64,000 bases of DNA from an uncultured Elusimicrobia bacterium (GTDB lineage: Bacteria; Elusimicrobiota; Endomicrobiia; DTEH01): assembly GCA_964561135.1 (NCBI GenBank), contig CAZLOB010000022.1, positions 5,718 to 69,717 of the forward strand, read 5' to 3'. This document shows, in pieces, positions 2,065-64,000 of the stretch. The stretch's first letter is position 1; every line of letters starts with the position of its first letter. A program made the translations under genes and the position numbers. A model generated the notes under the pieces. That model was not told the DNA's origin and did no database searches. It saw nothing but the letters and a program-made list of their open reading frames with translations.

Positions 2065-3078
2065 ATGTTATTTATACTTTTTATTGTTTTAAACCTTTCC
2101 TTTAATTTATACTCAGAGGTAAGGATAGTTGCAGTAGGTGATTTCATGCCTGGAAGTACTTATCCAAAACCGATACTTCTCTCTAAAGAAAAACTTGATG
2201 AAATTTGTGAAAATATAAAACAATATATACCTCAAGCTGATATAAAAATATTTAACTTAGAAGGGGTTTTAACAACAAGTACACAACCTTTTAAAAGAAT
2301 TAAAAAAACTTATTATTTTGCAATACCACCTGAATATGTGACAATAATAAAAAAATTAGGGTTTAACACAGCAAGTCTGGTTAACAACCATGTGTTAGAT
2401 TTTGGTTTAAGCGGATATAAAGAAACAGTAAAAATTTTAGAAGAAAATCAAATAAAGTATGCTGGTGAAAAAGGTAAGTTTGCTGAGTTTATTGTTAAGG
2501 AAAAAAAAGTTTGTGTTGTATCGTTCGGTTTTACTTATCCTAAAAAATTTTATTCAATTTTAAACATTAACGAAGCAAAAAAAGTTGTCACTGAATTAAA
2601 AGAAAAATATGATATAGTTATTGTTTCTTTTCATGGTGGCAAAGAAAGTTTTGAAAGGACTTTTGATGAAATGGAAGAATTTTTATCAGAAAAAAGGGGT
2701 AACTTAATAGCGTTTAGTCATGCTGTTATTGACGCAGGTGCTGACTTAGTAATAGGTCATGGTCCACATGTTCCACGTGCATTAGAGTTGTATAAGAAAA
2801 AACTTATTGTTTATAGCCTGGGAAACTTTTTTACATATGCAAGGTTTAATTTAGAAGGTATACGTTCATATGCACCAATGATATACGTTCTTCTTGATGA
2901 CGAGGGAAATTTTAAAGAAGGTAAAATAATACCGTTTATACAAACTGGTTTAGGTATACCTGTTTTTGATAACGAAAAAAAAGTTGTTAAATTAATAAAA
3001 AAATTAACTGAGCTTGACTTCCCACAAACAACATTGCATATTGACGAGGAAGGGAATCTGCAAATTAAACAATATTAA
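2065..3078 (+). CDS. CapA/PGA_cap family protein (poly-gamma-glutamate capsule synthesis-like metallophosphoesterase)
   Basis: An N-terminal hydrophobic signal/anchor is followed by AVGDFMPG, then HGG...SHAVID..GADLVIGHGPHV. These are the PGA_cap metallophosphatase-like motifs. Confidence 0.6.
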   Translation: MLFILFIVLNLSFNLYSEVRIVAVGDFMPGSTYPKPILLSKEKLDEICENIKQYIPQADIKIFNLEGVLTTSTQPFKRIKKTYYFAIPPEYVTIIKKLGFNTASLVNNHVLDFGLSGYKETVKILEENQIKYAGEKGKFAEFIVKEKKVCVVSFGFTYPKKFYSILNINEAKKVVTELKEKYDIVIVSFHGGKESFERTFDEMEEFLSEKRGNLIAFSHAVIDAGADLVIGHGPHVPRALELYKKKLIVYSLGNFFTYARFNLEGIRSYAPMIYVLLDDEGNFKEGKIIPFIQTGLGIPVFDNEKKVVKLIKKLTELDFPQTTLHIDEEGNLQIKQY

Positions 3079-3219
3079 ATCAATCCTTTATGTATCTAAA
3101 TCGTATATTCAAAAAAAAATGACAAGCACGTTAAGCAATTTTTAAAACTATTGATTTTTAGAATATAAATTAGTAAATGATTAAAGTGTCAAATTTTAAA
3201 CTATATTTTGTAAACAATC

Positions 3220-4342
3220 ATGACAATAAATCAAGAATTAATTGAAAAATACAAAGATCTTGTTTCTGAAATAGGAAAGATTGGAGATTTTCTTTAACAT
3301 TGCTGAAAAAGAAAAACTTTTGGCTGAGATACAACAAAAACTTGCTAATACTCAACTGTGGCAAAACACTTCTTCACAACAATATCTTGAACTAACAAAA
3401 CAATTTCAAGAAGTTCAAAAGAGTTTAGAAGTATATAACAAAATAAAATATTTACAACAAGAGTTAGAAACAATATTAGAACTACATAAAGAAACAGATG
3501 AACATTCTTTGGCAACAGAGTTTAAAAATTATCTTGCAGAACTACAGCAAATTGTAAACCAACTTAAGTTAACAATTTTTCTTAACGAACCATATGATAA
3601 ATCTAACGCTATTGTAACGCTTCATGCAGGCGCTGGTGGAACTGAAGCTTGTGACTGGGTTGAGATGTTGTTTAGGATGTACACACGTTGGGCAGATAAA
3701 AAAGGGTTTAAAGTAGAACTTGTTGATATTTCAAAAGGTGAGGAAGCGGGTTTTCGTAGTGTTATGTTTATTGTTAAGGGAGATTATGCATATGGTTTAC
3801 TTAAAGGTGAGGAAGGTGTACATAGGTTAGTGCGAATATCACCCTTTGATGCAAACAAAAGACGACATACATCGTTTGCAAGTTGTGATGTTGCAGCAGA
3901 AGTTGCTGAAGAAGAAATAGTTATTGACGAAAATGATTTAAAGATAGAGACATTTCGTGCTTCAGGCCATGGTGGACAACATCTACAAAAAACTGAGTCT
4001 GCAGTAAGGATTACTCATATACCCACAGGGATTGTGGTACAATGTCAGACAGAACGGTCTCAGTTAAAAAATAAACTAACTGCTTTAAAAATTTTAAAAT
4101 CAAGATTGTACAAACTTAAAAAAGAACAAGAATTAAAAGAAAAGCAAAAAGAACGTATACAGAAAGGTGAGATTGGCTGGGGTAGGCAAAAACGTTCTTA
4201 CATTTTTATGCCGTATCAACTTGTAAAAGATCATATTACAGGAGTTGAAGTAGGAGATATTAATTCTGTAATGGACGGAGAAATAGATGTTTTTATTCAA
4301 GCATATCTTGAATATATTGCAAAAAAGAATAAAAAAATATGA
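3220..4342 (+). CDS. prfB: Peptide chain release factor 2, made by a programmed +1 ribosomal frameshift (ORF0 3220-3294, then +1 frame 3296-4342)
   Basis: ORF0 encodes an RF2-like N-terminus (MTINQELIEKYKDLVSEIGKIGDFL, 25 codons) and ends at CTT TAA C. The +1 frame continues as an RF2 body with SPF-region and GGQ motifs ([11 protein letters not shown]). The layout matches canonical prfB: codon 25 is CUU and codon 26 is a stop. Confidence 0.85.
3283..3298 (+). promoter_or_regulatory. prfB +1 frameshift cassette: internal SD-like GGAG, spacer, slippery CUU, then in-frame stop UAA followed by C
   Basis: The sequence is ggagatttt CTT TAA C. The zero-frame stop at 3295-3297 is UAA instead of the canonical UGA. 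The downstream C makes a weak stop context, as in E. coli. Confidence 0.7.
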
Positions 4343-5409
4343 ATCAAATAGAGAATTTAAGGAAAAAAATAAACCGGATCGATCTAAAAATACTGAATTT
4401 ATTGAACCGTCGTGCTGAGATTGCAAAACAAATTGGCCAAATCAAATCTTCTAAAGGATACCAAATTTATTCTCCAGAACGAGAAAAAGAAATTATACAA
4501 AAAATGATAAAACATAATATGGGACCATTAGATGAGGAAGATGTGAAAGAAATTTTTTCTTTGATTATTCAAATCTGCAGGTATCAACAAAAAAAATTTA
4601 AAGTTTCATATTTAGGTCCTGAAGGAACTTTTACCCAACTTGCAGCAATAAAAATTTTTGGTAATAGAAACATTTATATACCTAAAGAAACAATAGGCGA
4701 TGTGTTTTACAGTGTTGAAAAAAACGAGGTTGAGTACGGTGTTGTTCCTGTAGAAAACACTACTGAAGGTATTGTTTCTCATACACTTGATATGTTTTTA
4801 GAATGTGATTTATACATCTGTGGCGAACTTGATATGAAAATTTCACATTGTTTGCTTTCAAAAGAAAACTCTATTAAAAAAATAAAGTATGTATATTCTA
4901 ACCCACAAGCTTTTGCTCAATGTAAAAACTTTGTTTCTACAAAGTTACATTATGCGAAACTAATTGAAGTGTCTTCTACTGCGGAAGCAGCAAAAATTGT
5001 TGCTAAAAAAAGGTATTCTGCAGCAATATCCTCAGAAGTAAGTGCCAAAATTTATAAATTAAACATTTTAGAAAGAAACATACAGGATTTAGAAGATAAC
5101 TACACAAAGTTTATTGTTATTGGTAAACACCCTATAATGAGACCATCTGGGAAAGATAAAACATCAATTTTGTTTTCTTTAAAAGACAGGGTTGGTATAC
5201 TGCATGACGCTTTAGCACCGTTTAAAAAACATGGGATTAACCTAACAAAGATAGAATCCAGACCGTCAAAACAACGTCCATGGGAATATGTTTTCTTTGT
5301 AGATTTTGTTGGCCATATAAACGATAAAAATGTTAAAAAAGCAATTGAAGAACTGGAAAATTTGTGTACAAATTATAAATTTTTAGGTTCGTATCCACAA
5401 GCGAAATAA
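4339..5409 (+). CDS. pheA: Bifunctional chorismate mutase / prephenate dehydratase (P-protein) with C-terminal ACT domain
   Basis: The N-terminal AroQ chorismate-mutase helix is IDLKILNLLNRRAEIAKQIGQIK. A prephenate dehydratase domain follows (YLGPEGTFT..., TRF-like ESRP), then a C-terminal ACT region. Its start overlaps the prfB stop (ATGA). Confidence 0.8.
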   Translation: MNQIENLRKKINRIDLKILNLLNRRAEIAKQIGQIKSSKGYQIYSPEREKEIIQKMIKHNMGPLDEEDVKEIFSLIIQICRYQQKKFKVSYLGPEGTFTQLAAIKIFGNRNIYIPKETIGDVFYSVEKNEVEYGVVPVENTTEGIVSHTLDMFLECDLYICGELDMKISHCLLSKENSIKKIKYVYSNPQAFAQCKNFVSTKLHYAKLIEVSSTAEAAKIVAKKRYSAAISSEVSAKIYKLNILERNIQDLEDNYTKFIVIGKHPIMRPSGKDKTSILFSLKDRVGILHDALAPFKKHGINLTKIESRPSKQRPWEYVFFVDFVGHINDKNVKKAIEELENLCTNYKFLGSYPQAK

Positions 5410-24396: not shown

Positions 24397-25353
24397 ATGA
24401 ACTATGAACCTTATGTAGAAAAATGGTCTGCTGAAATAATTGAAGTTACAATAGGTGCAACAAGTCAGGATGGTGGTACAAGAAGTAAAGTTTTAAAAGT
24501 AGGTGGAGCAAAAACTTTACCTTTTTTAAATTTTGAAGGTGGTTCATCTAACAAACCGGCTGTCGTAGCTGAAGTTGTTGATTATTTACCTGAAGAGCTT
24601 TGGCCAATTTTCTATGAGAACTTAAAAGATATTGTATCTGATCCAATAAAATGGATAAAAGAAGTTGAAAAATTACAGCCTGATGCAATATGTATAAGAT
24701 TGTTATCATGCCATCCTGATATAAAAAACAATTCAGTTGATTATATTAAATCTTTTATACCTGAAGTTTTAAAAACAACTTCTTTACCACTTATAATTCT
24801 AGGTTGTGAACATATAGAACGTGATACAGAAATACTACCTGTTGTATGCGAACTTACAAAAGGGGAAAAAATTCTTGTAGGTATGGCAGTAAAAGAAAAC
24901 TATAAAACAATATCTTTATCAGCGTTTGCTTGTGGACATTCAGTAATTGCTCAAACACCACTTGATATAAATTTGGCTAAACAACTTAATATTTTAATAA
25001 ATGATGCTGGTGTCCCTCTCGACAGAATTGTTATGCATCATACAACTGGTGGGTTAGGCTATGGGTTTGAATATTGTTATTCTATTATGGAACGTTGTAG
25101 ACTTGCTGGCTTACAAGGTGATAGTGTAATGGCTACACCTATTATAAACCTTGTTGGAGAAGAAACTTGGAAAACAAAAGAAGCTAAAGCTACAGTTGAA
25201 GAAGAACCTCTCTGGGGAAATGATACAATAAAAAGGGGAATTATGTGGGAAACAACTACTGCGTTTGGTTACCTTCAAGCAGGAAGTGATATAGTTGTAT
25301 TAGTTCATCCTGAAAGTATTAAAAATGTGAAATCTTTTTTAAGTCAAACATAA
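24397..25353 (+). CDS. acsD: CO dehydrogenase/acetyl-CoA synthase delta subunit-like (corrinoid Fe-S protein small subunit, AcsD/CdhD family)
   Basis: The N-terminus VTIGATSQDGGTRSKVLKVGG..LPFLNFEG resembles what I recall of AcsD. It is a ~320-aa TIM-barrel-sized protein, and no acsC partner is adjacent. Confidence 0.5.
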   Translation: MNYEPYVEKWSAEIIEVTIGATSQDGGTRSKVLKVGGAKTLPFLNFEGGSSNKPAVVAEVVDYLPEELWPIFYENLKDIVSDPIKWIKEVEKLQPDAICIRLLSCHPDIKNNSVDYIKSFIPEVLKTTSLPLIILGCEHIERDTEILPVVCELTKGEKILVGMAVKENYKTISLSAFACGHSVIAQTPLDINLAKQLNILINDAGVPLDRIVMHHTTGGLGYGFEYCYSIMERCRLAGLQGDSVMATPIINLVGEETWKTKEAKATVEEEPLWGNDTIKRGIMWETTTAFGYLQAGSDIVVLVHPESIKNVKSFLSQT

Positions 25354-32789: not shown

Positions 32790-34085
32790 ATGAAACAAAA
32801 AGTGTTTTTTAAAACCTTTGGTTGCCAAATGAATGTTGCTGATTCTGAGTATGTGGCATCTCTGTTAGTTTCTAAAGAAAATTATGAAATAACGCAAAAT
32901 ATAAATGAAGCAGATTTAATAATAGTTAATACTTGCTGTGTGAGAAAACATGCTGAAGATAGAGAAAAGTCGTTTCTTGGACAATTGAAGAAAATAAAAC
33001 TTAAAAACAACTGCAAAATCATTGTTTTAGGCTGTCTTGTACAAAAAGCAAAAAACGAACTTAAAAGACAATTTCCATACATAGACCTATTTATTGGTCC
33101 TACAGAATATGAAAATCTTTGCCAAATTTTAGAAAATGAACTTGATTTTCAAATCACTAATCCACAAATACATATAAACGTGTTCAACAAAACAAGTTGT
33201 TTTGTACCAATAATGAAAGGTTGTAACAATTTTTGTTCATACTGTATTGTACCATATGTAAGAGGTAGGGAAGTCTCTATAGATATAAACAATATTATTA
33301 AAGAGGTCAACTTTTTACTTGACAACGGTGTTAAAGAAATTATACTTATCGGACAGAATGTTAACTCTTATAAATGGGACAACAATGGAAATATTATTAC
33401 ATTTGCAAAACTTTTAGAAAAAGTTGCAACTTTAAATACTGACAAAAAATACTGGGTTCGTTTCTTGACAAATCATCCAAAAGATATGAACTATGAAATT
33501 GTTAAAACAATAAAAACTTATAATAACATTTCACGACATATTCATCTTCCATTACAATCAGGCTCTAACAAGATCTTAGAACTTATGAACAGAAATTACA
33601 CTTTGGAAAAATACAAACAAATTGTAGAAATGATACGTTCTGAAATTCCTGAGATCTCTATAACTACAGACCTTATTGTTGGATTTCCCTACGAAACAGA
33701 AGAAGATTTTAAACAAACACTACAGGCTGTAAAAGATATACAATTTGATGCAGCATTTGTTTTTAAATATTCCCCAAGAGAAGGGACAAAAGCTTATTTA
33801 TTACCTGATAACGTCCCAAAAGAAGTAAAAGAAAAAAGACATGCTGAATTATTGTCTTTATGTGACGGTATCGCTTCTCAAAAAAATAAAAAATATCTTG
33901 AAAAAGAAGTGGAAACATTAATTATTTCGCAAAACTTTAAACATGCAAAAAGTTATTATATCGGCAAAACTTTAGAAAACAAAACTGTTGAAATTATAAC
34001 AAAAAAAACTGGACTAGTAGGCAATTTTGTGAAAACAAAAATAAAAGAAGTAAAACTACATACTTTGATTGGTGAGCTGAGTTAA
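32790..34085 (+). CDS. miaB: Radical-SAM methylthiotransferase, MiaB family (tRNA i6A 2-methylthiolation; MiaB/RimO/MtaB subclass uncertain)
   Basis: An MTTase N-terminal domain (FKTFGCQMN) is followed by the radical SAM motif CSYCIVPYVRG and a C-terminal TRAM domain. Length is 431 aa. Confidence 0.7.
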   Translation: MKQKVFFKTFGCQMNVADSEYVASLLVSKENYEITQNINEADLIIVNTCCVRKHAEDREKSFLGQLKKIKLKNNCKIIVLGCLVQKAKNELKRQFPYIDLFIGPTEYENLCQILENELDFQITNPQIHINVFNKTSCFVPIMKGCNNFCSYCIVPYVRGREVSIDINNIIKEVNFLLDNGVKEIILIGQNVNSYKWDNNGNIITFAKLLEKVATLNTDKKYWVRFLTNHPKDMNYEIVKTIKTYNNISRHIHLPLQSGSNKILELMNRNYTLEKYKQIVEMIRSEIPEISITTDLIVGFPYETEEDFKQTLQAVKDIQFDAAFVFKYSPREGTKAYLLPDNVPKEVKEKRHAELLSLCDGIASQKNKKYLEKEVETLIISQNFKHAKSYYIGKTLENKTVEIITKKTGLVGNFVKTKIKEVKLHTLIGELS

Positions 34086-34086
34086 T

Positions 34087-36789
34087 ATGAAAGAATTACA
34101 AGAAATTAATCTTACACCTTTAATGAAACAATACCACCAAATAAAACAACAATATAAAGATTGTATACTAATGTTTCGTCTAGGCGATTTTTATGAAATG
34201 TTTGGTGAAGATGCGATAAAATCAGCGCCTGTTTTAGGTGTTGTTTTAACAAAGAGGCAAGGGGTACCAATGTGTGGTGTCCCATTCCACAGTGTTAACA
34301 ACTATATCTCAAAACTTCTTAATTGTGGATTCAAAGTTGCTATATGTGAACAAGTCGAAGATCCAAAACTTGCAAAAGGTGTAGTTAAAAGAGAAGTGGT
34401 AAGAGTTATAACTCCAGGAACAATTATTGAAGAAAATCTTCTTGATGCTAAAAAAAATAATTTCTTGACTTCTATAAATTTTGCTTTTGTCAAAAACAAA
34501 CTTTGTTTTGGTATTGCTAATGTTGATATTTCAACAGGTGATTTTTTAGTCACTCAATTTGAAGACCAAAATAGTTCCAAAATTATAGATGAGTTAATCA
34601 GGATCTCACCTTCTGAAATTGTTGCAAAAGAAACACAAAAAGAAGAAATTATCAAAATTGTAAAACAATACAAAGAAGTACATATAGAATTTTTAGAAGA
34701 TTGGTTCTTTGATGTATTAACAGCTGTAGAAAGAATTAAAGAGTATTATAAAATTTATTCTCTTGAAACATTTGGACTTGATATGACGAAACATGCAATT
34801 TTATTATCTTCTGTAGGCGGGTTATTAGAATACTTAAATAGGACACAAAAAAAATTGATACCAAAATTAAAAGGAATAAAATTTTATAACTTAGATGACT
34901 ACTTGTTTATGGACAGCAGCTGTATAAGAAATTTGGAGTTAGTAGAAAATCTTTATGATAGGACACAAAAAAATACTTTACTTGATGTTATCGACAAAAC
35001 ACAGACAGCCCAAGGTGCAAGATTATTACGAAGTTGGTTATTAAAACCATTAAAAGATGTAAAAGAAATTAATAATCGTTTATTAATTGTAGAAATGTTT
35101 TATAACGATGATACAAACAGACAAAAACTCAAAGATATTCTACGAAACATAGCAGATATTGAAAGAATAACAAATAGAATCACATCAAAAAATGCAACAC
35201 CAAAGGATCTTATCACACTAAAAGAATCTTTAGAATTAATACCTGAAATTAAAACATTATTACAACATATAATAAATTCTCAATTTGTTTTAAAACTTGA
35301 CGAACTACACAAAATGATCGATATTCCCGAATTAGAAGAAGTTAAACAACTTATAGAAAATAGTATAGTACCGGACGCGCCTACTGATATAAAAAAAGGA
35401 GGAGTTATCAAAAAAGGGTTTAATAAAGAACTTGATGAAATTAGAGAACTTTATTCTTCATCAAAAGAATGGTTGTTAAACTATCAAGAAGAACAACGAC
35501 GAAAAACACAAATACAGTCATTAAAAGTTGGATATACTTCTGTCTTCGGGTATTATATAGAAGTTACAAAATCTAATTTACATCTAATACCAAAAGAATA
35601 CATTAGGAAACAAACATTGAAAAATGCAGAACGGTTCACAACGCCTGAATTACAAGATTTTGAAAACAAAATCCTTTCAGCTGAAGAAAAAATTTTAAAT
35701 CTAGAAGAATATCTTTTCAATTCTGTAGTTGAACAAGTTGGACAATATGCTGAACAACTATATGAAGTAAGTTATAAGATAGCTTTAATAGATGTGTTTA
35801 GTAACCTTGCTGAAGTTGCAAAAAGAAATAATTATAAAAAACCTATTGTAGATGATTCATATATTATTGAATTAAAATCTTGTCGTCATCCTATAGTAGA
35901 ACAAATATTGCCTTACGGAAAGTTTATACCAAATGATGTATACCTTGACGGAGACAATGTAAAACTTATAATTTTAACAGGTCCTAATATGGCTGGAAAA
36001 TCAACTTATATAAGACAGGTTGCGTTGTGCACAATCTTAGCACAAATGGGAAGTTTTGTGCCAGCTGAATATTCACGTATAGGTGTTGTGGACAAAATTT
36101 TTGCTCGTATAGGTGCAGCTGATTATTTAGCAAAAGGATTGTCAACATTTATGGTTGAAATGCAAGAAACTGCTAATATACTTCATAATGCTACTGATAG
36201 AAGTTTGATAATTTTAGACGAAGTTGGACGTGGGACATCAACTTATGATGGTATCTCTATTGCTTGGGCTGTGATAGAATATCTTGTTAACAAACAAAAT
36301 TGGCCGAATAAAACCCATTGCCCTAAAACTTTGTTTGCTACACATTATTTTGAACTTACAGAACTTGAACAAAGGTATACTGGGATTAAAAATTTTAATG
36401 TTGCTGTTAAAGAATATAAAGACGAAATTGTATTTTTGTACAAAGTTATTGAAGGTTGTTCAGATAAATCTTATGGAATACATGTAGCAAAACTTGCTGG
36501 TATACCACAACAAGTTGTTAACCGGGCAAATATATTATTAAAATATTTACTTAACGCTGCTGCAAACATTGATAAAGCAACCAAATCTAAAAGTGTACAA
36601 CTACAACTAATCCATATTACTGAACAAAAAGAACAAGAAAAAAATTTTTTTAATGAAATATTGGTAAATCTAAAAAAAATTGATATAAACAAAATTACAC
36701 CATTAGATGCGTTTAATTTGTTACTACAATGGAAAAAAATGATAGAACAAAATACACAGGACCGGAACGACGAAAATATAAACGGTTAA
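34087..36789 (+). CDS. mutS: DNA mismatch repair protein MutS
   Basis: The 900-aa protein has an N-terminal mismatch-binding motif (GDFYEMFGEDA), Walker A GPNMAGKST, and DE(V)GRGTSTYDG. Confidence 0.9.
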   Translation: MKELQEINLTPLMKQYHQIKQQYKDCILMFRLGDFYEMFGEDAIKSAPVLGVVLTKRQGVPMCGVPFHSVNNYISKLLNCGFKVAICEQVEDPKLAKGVVKREVVRVITPGTIIEENLLDAKKNNFLTSINFAFVKNKLCFGIANVDISTGDFLVTQFEDQNSSKIIDELIRISPSEIVAKETQKEEIIKIVKQYKEVHIEFLEDWFFDVLTAVERIKEYYKIYSLETFGLDMTKHAILLSSVGGLLEYLNRTQKKLIPKLKGIKFYNLDDYLFMDSSCIRNLELVENLYDRTQKNTLLDVIDKTQTAQGARLLRSWLLKPLKDVKEINNRLLIVEMFYNDDTNRQKLKDILRNIADIERITNRITSKNATPKDLITLKESLELIPEIKTLLQHIINSQFVLKLDELHKMIDIPELEEVKQLIENSIVPDAPTDIKKGGVIKKGFNKELDEIRELYSSSKEWLLNYQEEQRRKTQIQSLKVGYTSVFGYYIEVTKSNLHLIPKEYIRKQTLKNAERFTTPELQDFENKILSAEEKILNLEEYLFNSVVEQVGQYAEQLYEVSYKIALIDVFSNLAEVAKRNNYKKPIVDDSYIIELKSCRHPIVEQILPYGKFIPNDVYLDGDNVKLIILTGPNMAGKSTYIRQVALCTILAQMGSFVPAEYSRIGVVDKIFARIGAADYLAKGLSTFMVEMQETANILHNATDRSLIILDEVGRGTSTYDGISIAWAVIEYLVNKQNWPNKTHCPKTLFATHYFELTELEQRYTGIKNFNVAVKEYKDEIVFLYKVIEGCSDKSYGIHVAKLAGIPQQVVNRANILLKYLLNAAANIDKATKSKSVQLQLIHITEQKEQEKNFFNEILVNLKKIDINKITPLDAFNLLLQWKKMIEQNTQDRNDENING

Positions 36790-46624: not shown

Positions 46625-47416
46625 ATGAAAAACTTTCTTATAAATTTAGTAAAAACAGCTGGAAGAATTTTGCAAAAATATTATTATTCAGATATATCAC
46701 AGTTGTCATTAAAATATAAATCAAAACATAATCCCGTAACAAAAGCAGATAAAGAAGCTGAAGAAATTATAAAATATATGATATCTAAAAAATTTCCTAA
46801 CGATAAATTTATATGTGAAGAAAGTTGTCCTACAGTTGACAAACTTAATAAAGAACAAAGATACTGGGTGATAGACCCACTTGATGGTACCGTAAATTTT
46901 TCACACAAACTTCCAATATTTTGTATCTCAATTGCTATAATAGAAAATAACGATATTGTTGAAGGAATTGTATATAATCCTATAACAAAAGATTTGTATT
47001 ATGCAAAAAAAGGATGTGGAGCGTATAAAAATAATAAAAAAATACTTGTATCTAAAATAAAAAATTTGTATAATTCTTTATTAGTAACAGGTTTTCCATA
47101 TTATACATATAAAAATCCACAACGGGTGTTTAAATTGTTTAACAAATTTGCGATTTCTGCACAAGCAGTACGTAGATTAGGTTCAGCAGCGTTAGACCTT
47201 TGTATGGTAGCCGAAGGTATCTTTGAAGGATTTTGGGAAGAAAACTTGCAAATATGGGATGTAGCAGCAGGATCTTTAATTGTTAAAGAAGCTGGAGGAG
47301 AAGTAACAGATTTTTTTGGTAAAGATAATTATTTGTTTGGTAAAACAATAGTTGCAACAAACGGAAAAATACATAAACAAATGTTGAATATTATAAGCAA
47401 AACAGTCAAAAGTTAA
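46625..47416 (+). CDS. suhB: Inositol monophosphatase family protein (SuhB/IMPase/FBPase-like)
   Basis: The IMPase metal-binding motifs are WVIDPLDGT and WDVAAG. Confidence 0.75.
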   Translation: MKNFLINLVKTAGRILQKYYYSDISQLSLKYKSKHNPVTKADKEAEEIIKYMISKKFPNDKFICEESCPTVDKLNKEQRYWVIDPLDGTVNFSHKLPIFCISIAIIENNDIVEGIVYNPITKDLYYAKKGCGAYKNNKKILVSKIKNLYNSLLVTGFPYYTYKNPQRVFKLFNKFAISAQAVRRLGSAALDLCMVAEGIFEGFWEENLQIWDVAAGSLIVKEAGGEVTDFFGKDNYLFGKTIVATNGKIHKQMLNIISKTVKS

Positions 47417-47421
47417 GAAGA

Positions 47422-47502
<81 letters not shown>

Positions 47503-48216: not shown

Positions 48217-48414
48217 ATGAAAGAATGTAAAATAAATGAAAATCTTAAAATTTGTCCATGCAGTTATCCAGTGTGTTCCAGAAAAGGTATTTGTTGTGAA
48301 TGTTTGCATTACCACAGAGAAAGAGGGGAACTGCCAGCATGTTATTTTTCACCAAAAGTTGAAAAAACATACGACAGAAGTATCGAAAATTTTATAAAAA
48401 ATTATAAAAAATAA
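48217..48414 (+). CDS. Small cysteine-rich protein (8 Cys in 65 aa), possible metal-binding
   Basis: The sequence reads [21 protein letters not shown]...C. A GAGG RBS lies upstream, and it ends 34 nt before the aspartokinase-like gene. Confidence 0.4.
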
Positions 48415-48448
48415 TAAGTCTCCAAACAATCTAAAGGAAAACCAAAAA

Positions 48449-49183
48449 ATGAGTATAAGACCTATAGTGATGAAATTTGGGGGTTCTTCAGTAGCAAATG
48501 TTGAACGTATAAAAAATGTTGCTAAAATCATTGTTAATAAAAAGAAAAAGTATAAACATATTGTAGTTGTTGTTTCAGCACCTGGAGATATGACCGACGA
48601 ACTTATTGAAAAAGCATACCAAATCACTCCTGACCCTGATAAACGAGAATTTGATATGTTGTTATCTACAGGAGAACAAATATCAATTGCTCTTTTAGCA
48701 ATGGCATTACATACATTAAACTGTGATGCTATTTCTTTAACAGGACCACAAGCAGGCATCTATGCTGATGCATCATATACCAAAGCTAAAATTATTGATA
48801 TTGATACAAAAAAAATAAAAAGATATTTAAAACAAGGTAAAGTGGTTATAGTTGCTGGTTTTCAAGGAATAAATCCTTATCAAGATATAACAACCTTAGG
48901 ACGGGGCGGTTCTGACCTTACCGCAATAGCGTTAGCTGCAAAGTTAAAAAGTCCTATCTGCGAAATATATACAGATGTAGAAGGTGTCTATACTACAGAT
49001 CCAAGAATTGTACCAGAAGCAAGAAAAATTAATTATCTTACCTATGACGAAATGCTTGAGATAGCAGGCAGTGGCGCACAAGTTATGATGGCAAGATCTA
49101 TTGAAGTAGCAAAAAAATATAATGTTAAACTTGAAATAAAATCGTCTCTTGTTCGAAAACCAGGAACAATAATTTATAAATAA
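48449..49183 (+). CDS. Aspartokinase catalytic domain only (amino-acid kinase family), lacking C-terminal ACT regulatory domains
   Basis: The N-terminus IVMKFGGSSV and the aspartokinase signature LGRGGSDLTAIALAA...EIYTDVEGVYTTDPRIVP...MLE.A.SGAQV are present. The ORF ends at the catalytic/ACT junction (KPGTIIYK*), and no ACT-encoding ORF follows. An AAGGAAA RBS lies upstream. Confidence 0.7.
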   Translation: MSIRPIVMKFGGSSVANVERIKNVAKIIVNKKKKYKHIVVVVSAPGDMTDELIEKAYQITPDPDKREFDMLLSTGEQISIALLAMALHTLNCDAISLTGPQAGIYADASYTKAKIIDIDTKKIKRYLKQGKVVIVAGFQGINPYQDITTLGRGGSDLTAIALAAKLKSPICEIYTDVEGVYTTDPRIVPEARKINYLTYDEMLEIAGSGAQVMMARSIEVAKKYNVKLEIKSSLVRKPGTIIYK

Positions 49184-49257: not shown

Positions 49258-49286
49258 TTGACATATATAAAATAAATTTGTATCTT
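49258..49286 (+). promoter_or_regulatory. Putative sigma70-like promoter for queH-aroD (TTGACA, 17 nt spacer, TATCTT)
   Basis: A perfect -35 TTGACA sits at 49258-49263. The -10 at 49281-49286 is weak. This is the only >100-bp gap upstream of queH. Confidence 0.25.
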
Positions 49287-49295
49287 TTTATTCGT

Positions 49296-49838
49296 ATGAA
49301 CAACAATAAAGTATTGCTTCATATTTGTTGTGGAATATGCGCATTAGAATCTATAAATAGGTTACTACAGCAAAAGTATAAAGTTATAGGTTACTTTTAC
49401 AACCCTAACATTTATCCAAAAGAAGAATATCAAAAAAGATTACAAGTTGTTGAAAAAGTTGCTGAAATATACAATATTAAGATCATCTATGATAATTACG
49501 AACCTGAAGTTTGGCAAAAATTATGTGGACAATACGAAAGCGAACCTGAAGGGGGAAAAAGATGTTTATTGTGTTATGAATTAAGATTAAGAAAAACATA
49601 CAATACTATGGTAAAAGAAAATCTTGATTTATTCACTACGACACTTACTATAAGTCCACATAAAAAATCAAATATAATTTTTGAAATAGGTGAAAAAATT
49701 GGTGGTGAAAAATTTTTAAAAATTGATTTTAAAAAACATGACGGATTTAAAAAAACTATTGAACTAGCAAAACAATTCGAGTTTTATAGACAAAACTATT
49801 GTGGATGCAAATTTTCATTAAGAAAAACTATCTTATGA
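49296..49838 (+). CDS. queH: Epoxyqueuosine reductase QueH (DUF208)
   Basis: The N-terminus LLHICCGIC and the later CLLCYELR Cys motifs are characteristic of DUF208/QueH. The start is chosen at the ATG giving MNNNKVLLHICC. Confidence 0.7.
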   Translation: MNNNKVLLHICCGICALESINRLLQQKYKVIGYFYNPNIYPKEEYQKRLQVVEKVAEIYNIKIIYDNYEPEVWQKLCGQYESEPEGGKRCLLCYELRLRKTYNTMVKENLDLFTTTLTISPHKKSNIIFEIGEKIGGEKFLKIDFKKHDGFKKTIELAKQFEFYRQNYCGCKFSLRKTIL

Positions 49839-50575: not shown

Positions 50576-50828
50576 ATTCTAAAAACTTAAACTTAAAATG
50601 ACGATTTAAAACTTAATCCGGCTATTGAATTTAACCAAATTTTAATCTAATTTTAAGTTCCTATAAGATATATTATGTTAATTTATATTTTTTGAATGAT
50701 ACTTTAAAATAAAGACGAAAAATTACGAAAAAACGAAATCATAAAACAAAAATTAATGTAATAGTTTAAATTCGAATAAAAATAAAAATTAAAGTAATAC
50801 TTGAAAATAGAAATTGCAAAAATTGTAA

Positions 50829-53851: not shown

Positions 53852-55143
53852 TCCCCAAAAAAACTCCAGATTTTACGAAAGAAACCTTTTATCCCTTTTG
53901 ACTGTTTTTTCCCTTTAAAAGGTTTTTTTTGACTTTCTATTTCGTATTTTATCAAACTTATTGAAGTAGTATAAGAAAAATTAGAAATAATATCTTCATC
54001 TCCCACAATAGAACTCTCCATACCTACATTTCCTGCACGAACATCAATACTTTCTTCAAGATCACTATATTCACTTTTTAACAACTCACGTAACGCGTCA
54101 GTAATACCCACCAAATTTCCCCCACCACCTGCTAAAACAACATCTCCATACTGTAGTGCTAACTCAACATAATGAATTTTTTTCAACTCGGGGATAACAA
54201 TGTCTAAAAAAATCTTTTCAATAACTTCAGCAATAATTTTTGCTATTTCTTTTTTTGTTGTAGTTCTAATATTTTTACCATCTCTGGATGGTATCTCAAC
54301 TTGTTCATCTTTTTTCACTGATGACGGTTGTGCAACACCATAACGACGTTTTATATTCTCTGCTACATTCCAAGATGTTTTATAATAAGCTGCAATTTCT
54401 CTCGTTATAAGGTCCGCTCCTAAATCAATATCTTTACTTTGAAACTCTCTACAATATCTTATGCATCCACCTAAATATACCACAGTCCCTATTGATTGTC
54501 CACCAAAATCTATTACTAAACAACCTAAATTACGTTCTTCAGCTTCCGTAACCAACTGTGCTAAAGAAATTAAACCATAATGTAAATTATCAATTACATA
54601 ACCAGCTTCCGTAAAAGTTCGTTCTATGTTCCTTATAAAACTTGAATATCCAACAATTGCATAAGCTTTTACTTCTAGAATACTTCCTTCCATATTAACA
54701 GGATTTGAAATTCCAGGTTGACCATCGATAATATACTCTTGAGGTATAATATTCATTATTAAACGATCATTCGAAATTCTTAAATTTTTTACTGCATGTT
54801 CAATAACTTTTTCTTGATCTTCAAAAGTAATTGTTCGATCAGTTGAGGTAATAGGAATTTGTGCTGAAGTTTCATAAGTACTTACAAACGGCCCTCTCAC
54901 ACCAACAATAAGTTTTGTCCTTTCAACTTTTGCCATATCTTCTAATGATGAAATCAACTCGTTTATAAGAGCAGCACTTCTCTCAATATCTTTAATTACA
55001 CCTGCAGAAATTGCTTCTTTATCGACTAACTGTTTACCTGCAATAATTTCTATAATTTCTTGTTCAGGATCGTACTTTCCTAAAACACCTGTAACACAAC
55101 CTGAACCTATATCAACCCCACAATAAATTTCTTCTTTTGGCAT
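53848..55143 (-). CDS. ftsA: Cell division protein FtsA
   Basis: It is actin-like, with the phosphate-1 motif GVDIGS, VIDFGGQS and the adenosine motif LAGGGG. It overlaps the ftsZ start. Confidence 0.85.
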   Translation of the reverse strand: MPKEEIYCGVDIGSGCVTGVLGKYDPEQEIIEIIAGKQLVDKEAISAGVIKDIERSAALINELISSLEDMAKVERTKLIVGVRGPFVSTYETSAQIPITSTDRTITFEDQEKVIEHAVKNLRISNDRLIMNIIPQEYIIDGQPGISNPVNMEGSILEVKAYAIVGYSSFIRNIERTFTEAGYVIDNLHYGLISLAQLVTEAEERNLGCLVIDFGGQSIGTVVYLGGCIRYCREFQSKDIDLGADLITREIAAYYKTSWNVAENIKRRYGVAQPSSVKKDEQVEIPSRDGKNIRTTTKKEIAKIIAEVIEKIFLDIVIPELKKIHYVELALQYGDVVLAGGGGNLVGITDALRELLKSEYSDLEESIDVRAGNVGMESSIVGDEDIISNFSYTTSISLIKYEIESQKKPFKGKKQSKGIKGFFRKIWSFFGE

Positions 55144-55199
55144 TTTTATTCTCCAAAAAAGAAATTATTTAAAATTTTTAAATATAAAATTATTAAGTT

Positions 55200-55970
55200 T
55201 TATTCAATATATGCCTTTCCATAGGATAATAACTGTGTATAAATTCTTGTGTTTTTATCAAATTTATATTTTATCAATTTAGATAGCATCTCTTTTTTTA
55301 CATTCTCAAATTTTTTGTCAACAATAAAATAAAGAATACAATTATCTTCCTCTCCACGGACACAAACAACATATTTATTGTTTTCTTTTCTAATTTTTTC
55401 AACTTTATCCCAAACATTAGCTTCACTAAATTTTTGATAGATAATCTTTAATGTTGGAATATCCACTTCGCCTTCTATATATGGCAGTTTAGCTAAATTA
55501 ATTTTTCTAGCATCATAAACTTTATACCATTTTATATCACTGGACAGAAACAAAATTCCATCATCAATTCCCTTTTTGTAACCTATTGGAGAAAAAGTAT
55601 GAATTTTAATTTTTAAAGGTTTTGTTGGAAAAAACATAATTTTTATCTCTTTAATTTCAGGAAAAACTTTTTGTAGTTTAAGAATATTTTTTTTATAATT
55701 AAAAACATCAAGATGTTCCGCATTTAGTTGTTTATAAATAATTTCGTCTGGTACTGTTGATTTGTTCTCGCATAAGTATACTTTTTGTATTTTAAAAACT
55801 TCATACTTAAAAACTTCATACAAAGATTTAACTTTACTTATTTTATAAACAACAAAAATCAAAATTGTTAAACAAGCTGTAGCCAATAAAAATCTGAAAA
55901 CAATTTTAAATTTTTTCTTTTTCTTATTTTTTTTCTTTACCAAAATGTTGAATGAATAATATCTACTCAT
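55200..55970 (-). CDS. ftsQ: FtsQ/DivIB-like cell division protein (single TM + POTRA-like)
   Basis: A K-rich cytoplasmic N-terminus, one TM helix and a periplasmic domain fit FtsQ. The position between ddl and ftsA is the canonical FtsQ position. Confidence 0.5.
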   Translation of the reverse strand: MSRYYSFNILVKKKNKKKKKFKIVFRFLLATACLTILIFVVYKISKVKSLYEVFKYEVFKIQKVYLCENKSTVPDEIIYKQLNAEHLDVFNYKKNILKLQKVFPEIKEIKIMFFPTKPLKIKIHTFSPIGYKKGIDDGILFLSSDIKWYKVYDARKINLAKLPYIEGEVDIPTLKIIYQKFSEANVWDKVEKIRKENNKYVVCVRGEEDNCILYFIVDKKFENVKKEMLSKLIKYKFDKNTRIYTQLLSYGKAYIE

Positions 55971-59225: not shown

Positions 59226-59624
59226 TTATTTTGACTCTCTTTTAACTATAGTTTTAATACCACCACGAAGGTTAAACTCAAGTTCTACATACAACCATTT
59301 TGGTTTTAACAATTTATTTAAATCTTCAAAAATTTGGTTCACTGCGGACTCGTGTACAATATGTACATTGCGATAACTTTGAATGTAATACTTTAGAGAC
59401 TTTAACTCAACACATACTTTATTTGGTACATATTTTATTCTAAGTGTTGCAAAATCGGGAAGGTTATTCCATGGACATAAACATGTAAATTCTTGCGTTT
59501 CAATTTCTATTGTTATATCTTTCCCTTTATATTCGTATTCTAGTGGTATTAACAACTCTGGCGAAATTTTATCAAATTTCACTGACAAATTCTTTATTCT
59601 ATCATATAATTCTACTTTTTTCAT
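59226..59624 (-). CDS. queF: NADPH-dependent 7-cyano-7-deazaguanine (preQ0) reductase, unimodular type
   Basis: The catalytic Cys context ([16 protein letters not shown]) and the QueF motif E(L)KSLK are present. Length is 132 aa. Confidence 0.85.
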
Positions 59625-60817: not shown

Positions 60818-61631
60818 ATACTAACCAAAATTCTGATGATGTCAAATCAATTTTGTTTTTTAGAAACTCGTATGCATTAGCTTTGTTTATTGCAACTTCA
60901 ATATATCCGATAGAATTAACGTATGCTAAAAATTCTTTTTCTTTTACATCTGCATAACATTTTTTAATTTTGGCCTTAAACATAGGTTTATTTTTATAAC
61001 AAATTGTAAGATAATATCTCTCAATTTTGTTTTTATTTAATACTTCTTCAGGTAAAGATGTAATGATATTCCCGAAACTATCACTAAAAAGATATTTTCC
61101 AACAACAATTTTTTTATTACCAAGTTTTTTTATTTCATAAGAAAAGTTTTGTAGTGTTATAATTTTTGATTTTTCAAATTTTTCACAAATTTTTTTAATA
61201 GGCACATTTTTAGATATATAAGCACCTACAGGTGAAAAAATATCCCGTCCATGGAAAGTATTACTTATTTTAGGTAAAAAAAATTTTGTGTTAACTATTT
61301 TATAAACTGAATAATTTTTTTCTTTATCTATCACTTTTGTTATTAATCCATTATTGGGTACAATAAAAACATAAAATCTTGTCTTTATCAAAAGTATTTC
61401 TCTTTCACTTCCTACTCCAGGGTCAACTACACATACAAAAATACTTCCTCTCGGAAAAAACTCATAAGATTTTGCAAGGATAACTGATGCTTGTAGAACA
61501 TTTTGTGGTGCAATATTATGACAAAGATCAATTATTTCTGCATTAGGATTTATCTTTTTAATTACTCCTTTCATTTGGCCAATATAAAAGTCGTTATTGA
61601 AATCTGTCAACAAAACAATAGGCCTTTTCAT
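60810..61631 (-). CDS. S-adenosyl-L-methionine hydroxide adenosyltransferase (DUF62 SAM hydrolase, fluorinase/chlorinase superfamily)
   Basis: The motifs are N-terminal LLTDF, VVDPGVGS and the highly conserved TFHGRDIFSPV. Length is ~273 aa. Confidence 0.75.
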   Translation of the reverse strand: MKRPIVLLTDFNNDFYIGQMKGVIKKINPNAEIIDLCHNIAPQNVLQASVILAKSYEFFPRGSIFVCVVDPGVGSEREILLIKTRFYVFIVPNNGLITKVIDKEKNYSVYKIVNTKFFLPKISNTFHGRDIFSPVGAYISKNVPIKKICEKFEKSKIITLQNFSYEIKKLGNKKIVVGKYLFSDSFGNIITSLPEEVLNKNKIERYYLTICYKNKPMFKAKIKKCYADVKEKEFLAYVNSIGYIEVAINKANAYEFLKNKIDLTSSEFWLVYE

Positions 61632-62335
61632 TTTATATAATACAAGGTCCTGTGTAACTGAGGAATTATATGTATTGATGGTACATATCTTTTTGCTTTC
61701 CTAAAAATTTCAACAAGATTAAAAAAAAGTTTTCTATTTCTTTTTTTTAATGCTGAAGTTTCCGGCTGTAATACCAAAATTTTTGGTTTTGCATTTTTTA
61801 AAAGATGACAAATTTTTTTTAATGTATTTTTTTTATACCACGCTCTCCCACAAACCACCATCTTTATAAAAAACTTCTTATTTTTATTCTTACATAAACT
61901 AATAACTTTTTCAGCTTCACGCAGTGTATTTTTTTTATTTAAATCATCATCTGGAATTTTGACATTAACTGCGCAAACATCTATAAGATCTATTATTTTT
62001 TCAAATTGGTTTAATGATGAAGCATTTGTTTCTAAATAAATTTTTACTCTACAATTTTTTATAATCTCTTTTATAAAAAACGGTAGATCTTTTTGTAGCA
62101 AAGGTTCACCACCTGTTAAACTTATAAACTCAGGTCTATATTTTTTAACATATTCCAAAACTTTTTTAACAGCAACATTTAATTCAACTTTATCCTTTGA
62201 TGAAACTTTTTTTGCATATTTTGTATCACAATAACAACAACTAAGATTACATCCTGCAAACCTTACAAACACCGTTGGGCAACCAATATAAGGACCTTCA
62301 GCTTGGTAAGAAAAGAAAATTTCTTTAATGTTCAT
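61628..62335 (-). CDS. queE: 7-carboxy-7-deazaguanine synthase (radical SAM)
   Basis: The N-terminus EIFFSYQAEGPYIGCPTVFVRFAGCNLSCCYCDTKY is a QueE-type modified CxxxCxxC cluster motif. Confidence 0.8.
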   Translation of the reverse strand: MNIKEIFFSYQAEGPYIGCPTVFVRFAGCNLSCCYCDTKYAKKVSSKDKVELNVAVKKVLEYVKKYRPEFISLTGGEPLLQKDLPFFIKEIIKNCRVKIYLETNASSLNQFEKIIDLIDVCAVNVKIPDDDLNKKNTLREAEKVISLCKNKNKKFFIKMVVCGRAWYKKNTLKKICHLLKNAKPKILVLQPETSALKKRNRKLFFNLVEIFRKAKRYVPSIHIIPQLHRTLYYIK

Positions 62336-63000
62336 TTTTTATCCAATGGATCAACAAGCCCTGCTTTTTTAAACCCCATTTTACGAAACCTGCAAGAGTC
62401 ACAACTTCCACAAGGTCTTTTTGCACCTTTATAACAACTCCATGTGTTTTGCAAAGGGACACCAAGTTTTACTGCTAATTTAACAATTTCTTCTTTTGTC
62501 AAATTGATAAGTGGAGCAACAATTTTTATTTTTTTACCACTTACACCCTTCTTTGTTCCAACATTTATCATTTTTTGGAAAGCGTCAACAAACTCTTGCC
62601 TACAGTCAGGATATCCAGAAAAATCAATTTGGTTTGCTCCAAAAAAAATGTAATTAGCATCTATTACTTCTGCCAAAGATGTTGCAAACGATAAAAATAT
62701 TATATTTCTTGCAGGAACATAAGTTAACGGGATTACATTTTTGTGTTTGCTTTTAGTCAACTTAAGTTTTTTATTAATTAACGAACTACCTTTCCAAGGT
62801 AGACCAAATTTTACAACATAGTATTTCAACCCTAAACTTTTAGCAATTTTTTTTGCACAATAAATTTCTTTTTTATGTCTTTGTCCATAGTCAAATATAA
62901 GGCACACAGGCTTATATCCTTGCTTAATTACATAATAAAGAGTGGTAGTAGAATCTAACCCGCCAGAAAGTAAAACAACACATTTTTTATTCTTCTTCAT
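62332..63000 (-). CDS. queC: 7-cyano-7-deazaguanine synthase
   Basis: The PP-loop SGGLDS (VVLLSGGLDSTT) and the C-terminal zinc-binding Cys cluster (C..CGSCDSC) are present. Confidence 0.85.
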   Translation of the reverse strand: MKKNKKCVVLLSGGLDSTTTLYYVIKQGYKPVCLIFDYGQRHKKEIYCAKKIAKSLGLKYYVVKFGLPWKGSSLINKKLKLTKSKHKNVIPLTYVPARNIIFLSFATSLAEVIDANYIFFGANQIDFSGYPDCRQEFVDAFQKMINVGTKKGVSGKKIKIVAPLINLTKEEIVKLAVKLGVPLQNTWSCYKGAKRPCGSCDSCRFRKMGFKKAGLVDPLDKK

Positions 63001-63373
63001 AACTCGCGTACTGGGTTGGTGTTTCCCACACGATAACCTTTATTTTTTGTATATTTTTATATTTTAAAAGTTTCTCTTTTAATTTTTCGTATATAAACTT
63101 TGCAATATTTTCTGCAGTTGGTTGATTATTTTTAAAAAATGGAAGGTTGTTTAAATATTTATGGTCTAACTGGTATAAAATTTTGTTCAAAACTTTTTTT
63201 AATTTCACAAAATCTATTACCATTTGTTGAGTGTTTAACTTTGTAGATGAAACGATAACCCCTACTTTCCAATTATGTCCATGTAGATTCTCACATTTAC
63301 CTTTATATAATTTCAAATGATGTGCAGCAGAAAAACTGTTTTCTACATATACTTCAAATTTATTCACTTTCAT
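62987..63373 (-). CDS. queD: 6-carboxy-5,6,7,8-tetrahydropterin synthase (PTPS-like)
   Basis: The 128-aa protein has the zinc-binding His motif (SAAHHL...HGHNW) and an E-x-P-T region (ETPTQ). Confidence 0.8.
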   Translation of the reverse strand: MKVNKFEVYVENSFSAAHHLKLYKGKCENLHGHNWKVGVIVSSTKLNTQQMVIDFVKLKKVLNKILYQLDHKYLNNLPFFKNNQPTAENIAKFIYEKLKEKLLKYKNIQKIKVIVWETPTQYASYEEE

Positions 63374-64000
63374 TCAATTTTAACTTTTTTAACATATTTT
63401 ATTTCTTGACCTAATAACAACGATCCTATTTTTTTAAAACTTTCAGGATTGTCAGAAACAAAAAATTTATATTTTGGTTTGTTATTCCTAAATTTACACA
63501 ATTTATTTTCTTCAAGAATTTTTTTAACTTCTTTTGCTGTTTCTAACGACGAATCCACAACAGTAACATTTTTACCAATTATATCTTGAATTATATTTTT
63601 TATTGCAGGATAATGAGTACAACCTAATACTAAAACATCAATACCAAAATTTTTTAAAGGTGCTAAATACTCAGCTGATAGTTGTCTTAAAATATTTTCA
63701 TGGTTTATTGTTTGATAATAGTCACTATTTATAAGTTGAAGTTTATCAATCCATCCTTCTTCTATTAAAGGGACAAACAAAGGTGTTGGTTGGCAAAAAA
63801 TTTTTGCCTTATTACAAATTTTTTTAATCGCTTTTATATATGATTTGCTTTTTATAGTTGCTTTTGTACCGATTACTCCAATTTTATAATTTTTTGTGTA
63901 TTCAACAGCAGCCCTAGCACCAGGAGTGACAACTTCTACTATTTTGAGATTTTTAAACATTTTTTTTAACATTGGGATAGCATATGATGATGAAGTATTA
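63370..64000 (-). CDS. murI: Glutamate racemase (C-terminal ~2/3; N-terminal coding part lies beyond the window end)
   Basis: The second catalytic Cys motif LGCTHYP and the IGVIGT-like region are present. The frame remains open to position 64000, so the true start is off-window. Confidence 0.7.
   Translation of the reverse strand, partial: NTSSSYAIPMLKKMFKNLKIVEVVTPGARAAVEYTKNYKIGVIGTKATIKSKSYIKAIKKICNKAKIFCQPTPLFVPLIEEGWIDKLQLINSDYYQTINHENILRQLSAEYLAPLKNFGIDVLVLGCTHYPAIKNIIQDIIGKNVTVVDSSLETAKEVKKILEENKLCKFRNNKPKYKFFVSDNPESFKKIGSLLLGQEIKYVKKVKIE

Follow-up and report, generated by a model that had tools for sequence, protein, structure and literature searches.

Aspartokinases of the α2β2 type, such as the LysC enzymes of Corynebacterium glutamicum (3AAW, 3AB2, 3AB4) and Pseudomonas aeruginosa (5YEI) and that of Thermus thermophilus (β subunit, 2DT9), produce their β subunit from an internal start inside lysC, and the α subunit keeps its own pair of ACT domains. 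What chiefly keeps the β subunit in these complexes is its pairing with the ACT domains of α. A small free ACT subunit which confers end-product feedback on a separate catalytic subunit is known from the acetohydroxyacid synthase IlvB/IlvN.

The aspartokinase described here is encoded in a 64-kb stretch of DNA (64,000 nucleotides, below called the window) from an uncultured Elusimicrobia bacterium. Its catalytic domain is alike end to end to that of the α2β2 enzymes, and the lineage, like these enzymes, has a separately made ACT–ACT polypeptide, which aligns from residue 2 of the β subunit. Unlike in the α2β2 enzymes, however, the open reading frame is cut, the catalytic chain is without ACT domains, and the β-like protein has a gene of its own which in the sub-clade of the window lies 30 kb off. 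The fused aspartokinases of the Elusimicrobiota and Omnitrophota (for example, P0082) are 64–70% identical over the catalytic part and are tiled by the split genes without loss, but they are single open reading frames. With IlvB/IlvN the likeness is an analogy of mechanism, as the catalytic folds are unrelated and there is thus no homology of the catalytic part. We regard the enzyme of the window as a probable gene-fission variant of a known enzyme and not as a new system. A search of the literature on split or ACT-less aspartokinases, on the aspartate kinase of Endomicrobium, and on DUF6485 found nothing relevant; the aspartokinase review by Lo et al. (2009) was not among the literature covered.

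Extent and conservation of the kinase gene

The kinase gene and its two neighbours are arranged as follows:

48217–48414, + strand, DUF6485 small protein of 65 aa with 8 Cys and His33 (PF20095, 30 bits, cut-off 24)
48449–49183, + strand, protein of 244 aa with the amino-acid-kinase fold and no further domain, probable catalytic half of a split aspartokinase encoded by two genes (PF00696, aspartate kinase profiles, alignment to 3AAW_A)
49278–49838, + strand, QueH (epoxyqueuosine reductase), downstream neighbour and not part of the enzyme (PF02677, 202 bits)

The sequence-only reading had assigned a full aspartokinase catalytic domain to the 244-aa protein, ending at the usual catalytic/ACT boundary, and both statements are borne out by the profiles and by the structure-based alignment. 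The Pfam scan gave PF00696 (AA_kinase) as the sole match with 181 bits and no ACT domain. Among the NCBIfam matches listed, 23 of 25 are aspartate kinase models (E down to 7e-109), and the protein spans positions ∼4–242 of these profiles of ∼400 aa. The score for NF005154 is 357 bits, and the cut-offs of NF005155 (348.3 bits, cut-off 346) and TIGR00657 (304.9 bits, cut-off 208.7) are passed, whereas the remaining equivalog models stay below their cut-offs because the kinase leaves the ACT half of each profile unmatched. The protein aligns to residues 4–241 of the α chain of the C. glutamicum aspartokinase (3AAW_A, E 3e-75) with conservation of KFGGSS, SAPGD.TDEL, GEQIS, GFQG, LGRGGSD, and YTDVEGVYTTDPR; the general motif patterns KxGGSS, GE.IS, LGRGGSD, and DV(D/E)GVYT.DPR are kept. 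Since only these parts of 3AAW_A and of the profiles are covered, the protein ends at the catalytic/ACT boundary, and as it stops at profile position ∼242 the two C-terminal ACT domains are absent from the kinase polypeptide.

It had also been noted that no ACT open reading frame follows, and this is correct. QueH sits where the ACT region would be expected and starts 95 nt past the stop codon of the kinase, which leaves too little space for an ACT domain. A tblastn search of the 64-kb window with two stand-alone ACT proteins as queries did not find an aspartokinase-type ACT region (best E 0.42). An internal in-frame start of a β subunit is likewise missing, as neither the kinase gene of the window nor the sequence behind it codes for an ACT domain. 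Judged from its sequence, the 244-aa protein is a genuine ACT-less aspartokinase with aspartate phosphorylation as its predicted activity.

The same 244-aa protein is found on five independent contigs which are 99.6–99.8% identical to the window, and the database holds 16 clusters of 237–265 aa with 73–94% identity to the window kinase and AA_kinase as their only domain; the short form is therefore no sequencing artefact. The next matches (≤70% identity) are the fused aspartokinases of 400–420 aa from Elusimicrobiota and Omnitrophota. In a neighbor-joining tree of the catalytic parts 18 short sequences, namely the 16 clusters, the window protein, and the kinase of locus L018, are monophyletic without any full-length member inside. 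This clade belongs to the Endomicrobiia, and its ACT-less kinases are mostly 244–248 aa long; source names within it include “uncultured Elusimicrobia sp.” (L036, 95% identity) and “Endomicrobia bacterium SKYB53” (L109, 85%). A further short protein, P0026 (locus L009), falls outside the main short clade, and either its gene was split independently or its position is an artefact of the tree. The kinase gene of the window is under strong purifying selection (dN/dS 0.05–0.14 against relatives, cited from unsaturated pairs only, as dS is saturated against the lineage of L018 and L003 with its 65% GC), and the length of the protein is steady at 244–245 aa down to 72% identity.

Two readings would deny that this gene encodes a working aspartokinase. 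A different amino-acid-kinase subfamily with a substrate other than aspartate could be suspected as the generic AA_kinase is the sole Pfam domain, but the best non-aspartokinase NCBIfam model, that of UMP kinase, gives no more than 46 bits where 244 would be required, nearly all the profile matches listed above are to aspartate kinase, and the identity to fused aspartokinases is 64–70%. Such a kinase is very unlikely, and this candidate is ruled out by the profile scores. That the gene is a decaying remnant of lysC in a reduced genome might be argued from the AT-rich genome (29% GC), from the small genomes of the relatives (one contig of 1.10 Mb), and from a nearby metK gene which looks broken in the loci of the ACT protein P0143 (see below). 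On the contrary, the low dN/dS, the length conserved over a wide range of identity, and the intact state of all catalytic motifs leave a pseudogene hardly any probability, dN/dS and conserved length ruling it out.

The ACT–ACT gene of the relatives and the probable origin of the split

The earlier claim of a genuine loss of the ACT domains holds in one part and fails in the other. The short gene is real and not produced by a frameshift, as the five contigs and 16 clusters show, but the domains were not lost from the lineage: in the closest relatives a conserved, separate ACT–ACT gene lies ∼30 kb away, at a distance that is outside the window. In fact every relative with enough contig has a stand-alone ACT–ACT gene of 165–172 aa. 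This gene is under purifying selection (dN/dS 0.07–0.22). From lineage to lineage its degree of identity follows that of the kinase, and the two genes are co-inherited. The following arrangements were found:

L009 (P0026, 70% identity): thrB, kinase of 236 aa, in-frame spacer with two stops, ACT–ACT open reading frame of 159 aa
L018–L022: thiC-thrB-kinase-QueH-x-SSF-radical SAM-ACT (167 aa); kinase–ACT spacing 3.8 kb in L018
L004: thrB-kinase-two inserted genes-QueH-radical SAM-ACT (165 aa); kinase–ACT spacing 4.7 kb
JAEDZT010001687.1 (1.10-Mb contig): kinase 304,295–305,032; ACT gene (P0136) 273,809–274,321
Ga0209809_1000012 (P0001 type): kinase 107,710–108,444; ACT gene 77,245–77,754
Ga0308394_1000065 (P0001 type): kinase 54,902–55,636; ACT gene 24,432–24,941
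k141_147058 (P0001 type): kinase 33,534–34,268; ACT gene 3,069–3,578

In the last four contigs the ACT gene is 29,955–29,974 bp downstream of the kinase on the opposite strand and beside the gene of PBP1A. The order RadC-kinase-QueH-AroD of the window is kept in all four of them, and the three closest ones, of the P0001 type, also contain DUF6485; the P0001 cluster is the closest to the window kinase with 94% identity. Three further kinase/ACT pairs were found on contigs of matching size (406,704, 96,381, and 96,318). The adjacency of kinase and QueH is kept across most of the split-aspartokinase clade (L001, L003, L006, and L018), with two genes in between in L004. In the closest relatives (L028) a Cas6-like gene adjoins the ACT gene.

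The ACT–ACT open reading frame of L009 has its own Shine–Dalgarno sequence and ATG (MEEPVV...), and its distance to the kinase is about 105–109 nt. The spacer (3712–3819) contains two similar hairpin repeats, CGTCCGAATTCGGACGCTACA and CGTCCAGTTAAAACTGGACGCTACA, and the split at this locus may go back to a small palindromic repeat element that was inserted here.

The point at which the enzyme was divided can be read from the fused relatives. Residues 3–244 of the window kinase match residues 2–243 of P0082, a fused Elusimicrobia aspartokinase of 407 aa, and residues 10–168 of the ACT protein P0143 match its residues 248–406; therefore the two genes tile the full-length enzyme. The alignment of P0143 begins at residue 2 in the β-subunit chains 5YEI_D, 2DTJ_A, and 3AB4_B and at residue 250 in the C. 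glutamicum α chain. The break thus falls at the internal start of the β subunit of α2β2 aspartokinases. Among the GTDB-representative loci that reach past the kinase domain all 77 are fused, and in these fused relatives an ATG stands exactly at the split position in 54 of 77 and a Shine–Dalgarno-like motif, typically AAGGAGG, is found just upstream inside the open reading frame in 63 of 77. We conclude from the internal start and its motif that even in the ancestor the ACT pair was also translated on its own, so that the fission needed just a stop in the linker.

The two-gene form is not restricted to this lineage. On three contigs of “Candidatus Aerophobetes” from different samples (L196–L198) a kinase gene (241 aa) is followed after a gap of 24 nt by an ACT gene (173 aa) and by asd. 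This operon links the two-gene form with the aspartate pathway and shows that the fission recurs; the aspartokinase of the Aerophobetes is an independent split.

The window ends 14,817 bp past the stop codon of the kinase, and with the ACT gene of the relatives at ∼29.96 kb the partner gene is to be expected ∼15 kb beyond its right end. P0143 (172 aa) is a candidate for this partner. Two samples (ERZ27289263 and ERZ27245891) contain both this exact protein and the exact window kinase, and the P0143 locus L012 has a GC content of 29.0% compared to 29.2% for the window. The nucleotide identity of L012 is 78–81% to the P0001-type relative and 70–71% to the 1.10-Mb genome; the window stands at the same distances from these two relatives, with 78–86% and 74%. 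The evidence from shared samples and from the relatives, rather than from one shared contig, makes a good circumstantial case for P0143 in this strain. For the 200-aa open reading frame at the right end of the window (63370–63972) no exact match is on record.

The metK gene beside the ACT gene appears as two open reading frames (194 and 137 aa) in five contigs, L012 (6845–7887), L013, and L015–L017, and as a single open reading frame of 347 aa in L014 (3366–4409). The split call in the contigs of the L012 type may stem from a frameshift or from a decaying gene.

The cysteine-rich neighbour

The 65-aa open reading frame with eight cysteines had been noted 34 nt upstream of the kinase, and its coordinates, length, and distance are exact (gap 48415–48448). 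It is probably co-transcribed with the kinase gene. The protein is an ordinary member of the Pfam family DUF6485 with all the invariant residues present: C4, C13, C15, C20, C26, C27, C29, C42, and H33 do not vary among 35 homologs drawn from many phyla. The AlphaFold2 model is of moderate quality (pLDDT 72), and a Foldseek search of the PDB with this model of only pLDDT 72 gave no match. The DUF6485 protein probably binds a metal or a cluster, a putative function.

It had been proposed that this protein could regulate the ACT-less kinase, possibly in a redox- or metal-dependent way. The close spacing on the same strand, the eight invariant cysteines with one histidine, and the purifying selection on the gene (dN/dS 0.08) would be in agreement with this proposal. 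Nevertheless, the genomic distribution speaks clearly against it. DUF6485 stands beside the kinase only in L006–L008, L023–L026, and L036, that is, in the strain of the window, the P0001 relatives, and L036, and the two genes are thus neighbours in the closest sub-clade alone; no DUF6485 gene adjoins the kinase in L001, L109, L004, L018, L003, and L009 or in the 77 fused loci. Conversely, an aspartokinase within 4 kb was found in none of 80 other DUF6485 loci (L116–L195). The small protein is unusually well conserved and its family very widespread: homologs with 60–77% identity occur in CPR bacteria, a DPANN archaeon, Omnitrophota, Aminicenantes, Chloroflexi, and Caldicellulosiruptor, and several of the lineages carrying DUF6485 (CPR, DPANN, and others) are without amino-acid biosynthesis. 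DUF6485 is therefore no conserved partner of the kinase, nor is it credible as its dedicated regulator; we regard such a role as extremely improbable. In the 80 loci ligA is directly upstream of DUF6485 in 10 cases and a convergent QueH gene is downstream in 6, a possible hint of some connection with the metabolism of queuosine or DNA.

Regulation and metabolic context

The window contains genes for the synthesis of aromatic amino acids (pheA, DAHP synthase, tyrA, aroA, aroD), histidine (hisD, hisB), and branched-chain amino acids (leuA-like, ilvD, ilvB), and in addition cell-wall and division genes and a queuosine cluster:

59226–59624, − strand, QueF
61628–62335, − strand, QueE-like radical SAM protein
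62332–63000, − strand, QueC
62987–63373, − strand, QueD/PTPS

It had been stated that no asd, hom, or dapA gene is adjacent to the kinase. This applies to the whole 64-kb window, in which domain annotation and synteny with annotated loci revealed none of these genes and no thrB or other thr genes. The further proposal of a specialised pathway finds nothing in its support. In the more basal relatives (L004, L009, and L018) the kinase directly follows thrB, and together with the kinase-ACT-asd operon of the Aerophobetes this indicates ordinary aspartate-family biosynthesis. A scan for promoters and terminators around the genes gave results no better than shuffled sequence. The pheA gene of the window (4339–5409, + strand), coding for chorismate mutase-prephenate dehydratase, still has an ACT domain fused to it; the loss of the covalent link to ACT domains is therefore specific to the aspartokinase and no trend of the whole genome.

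We consider it likely that the 244-aa open reading frame is the catalytic subunit of a lysC which was split by gene fission and whose partner, the ACT–ACT gene, is located elsewhere. The ancestral lysC would have been of the α2β2 type, a single open reading frame with an internal ribosome binding site and ATG for the ACT–ACT β subunit. In the Endomicrobiia this frame would have been cut in the short linker just before the internal start, giving a kinase-only gene and an ACT–ACT gene of 165–172 aa. QueH and other genes would then have been inserted between both genes, which in the sub-clade of the window would now be ∼30 kb apart on opposite strands. The ACT–ACT protein may dimerise as β subunits do, and the dimer may dock non-covalently on the kinase dimer and could thus make the opening step of Lys/Thr/Met/diaminopimelate synthesis subject to feedback inhibition by Thr and/or Lys. 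The DUF6485 gene would be a recently acquired neighbour with an unrelated function. Regulation in trans, which the sequence-only reading had named as one option, appears as the likely mode in view of the separate conserved ACT–ACT gene of the relatives.

As the ACT domains of α, to which β is mainly bound in the known enzymes, are missing here, two other modes have to be considered. The kinase might be truly unregulated and insensitive to feedback, and the ACT–ACT protein, which could have acquired another role, would then have a different job or be a relic. This would fit a kinase gene without ACT domains, an ACT gene that is unlinked in the sub-clade (30 kb, opposite strand), and the fact that the α-ACT/β-ACT pairing of the known α2β2 enzymes cannot form. 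However, the ACT gene is kept under purifying selection in every lineage examined, its divergence follows that of the kinase, and where genomes are less rearranged the ACT gene adjoins the kinase gene or is part of the kinase-ACT-asd operon. Thus, an unregulated enzyme appears improbable to us. Alternatively, binding of Thr or Lys might be required before a free ACT dimer joins the ACT-less kinase; no permanent complex of the α2β2 kind would then form, and the dimer would act as a dissociable, effector-dependent inhibitor. We know of no aspartokinase for which this mode has been described, and we give it a limited though real chance; if true, it would explain why the kinase and ACT genes tolerate being unlinked.

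The preferred reading, a split lysC with its ACT–ACT partner encoded elsewhere, implies that deregulation cannot simply be assumed when a genome fragment shows an aspartokinase without ACT domains. It describes a natural fission of lysC exactly at the α/β boundary which is fixed across the Endomicrobiia, and at least one other phylum shows such a fission again. Two-gene aspartokinases of this kind would be a natural test of ACT regulation purely in trans, which is of relevance for the engineering of feedback-resistant lysine and threonine producers and for the annotation of the ACT partner, which is currently annotated merely as “ACT domain-containing protein”. Otherwise the biology is plain aspartate-family amino-acid synthesis.

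Some variation was observed in the flanks of the kinase locus. The contigs of the same strain (99.6–99.8% identity) depart from the window exactly at tRNA-Pro (departure at 47413; tRNA-Pro 47422–47500). In L023 the left flank is unlike that of the window and the whole locus has 37% GC compared to 29% in the window; L024 departs from the window after aroD at 50682, and HTH genes then follow. The breakpoints of L023 and L024 are either assembly chimeras or strain-variable islands. The interval between suhB and RadC holds an N6_N4 methyltransferase gene and a gene of 348 aa in L006–L008, which are likely a restriction–modification pair, whereas in the window this interval contains tRNA-Pro alone.
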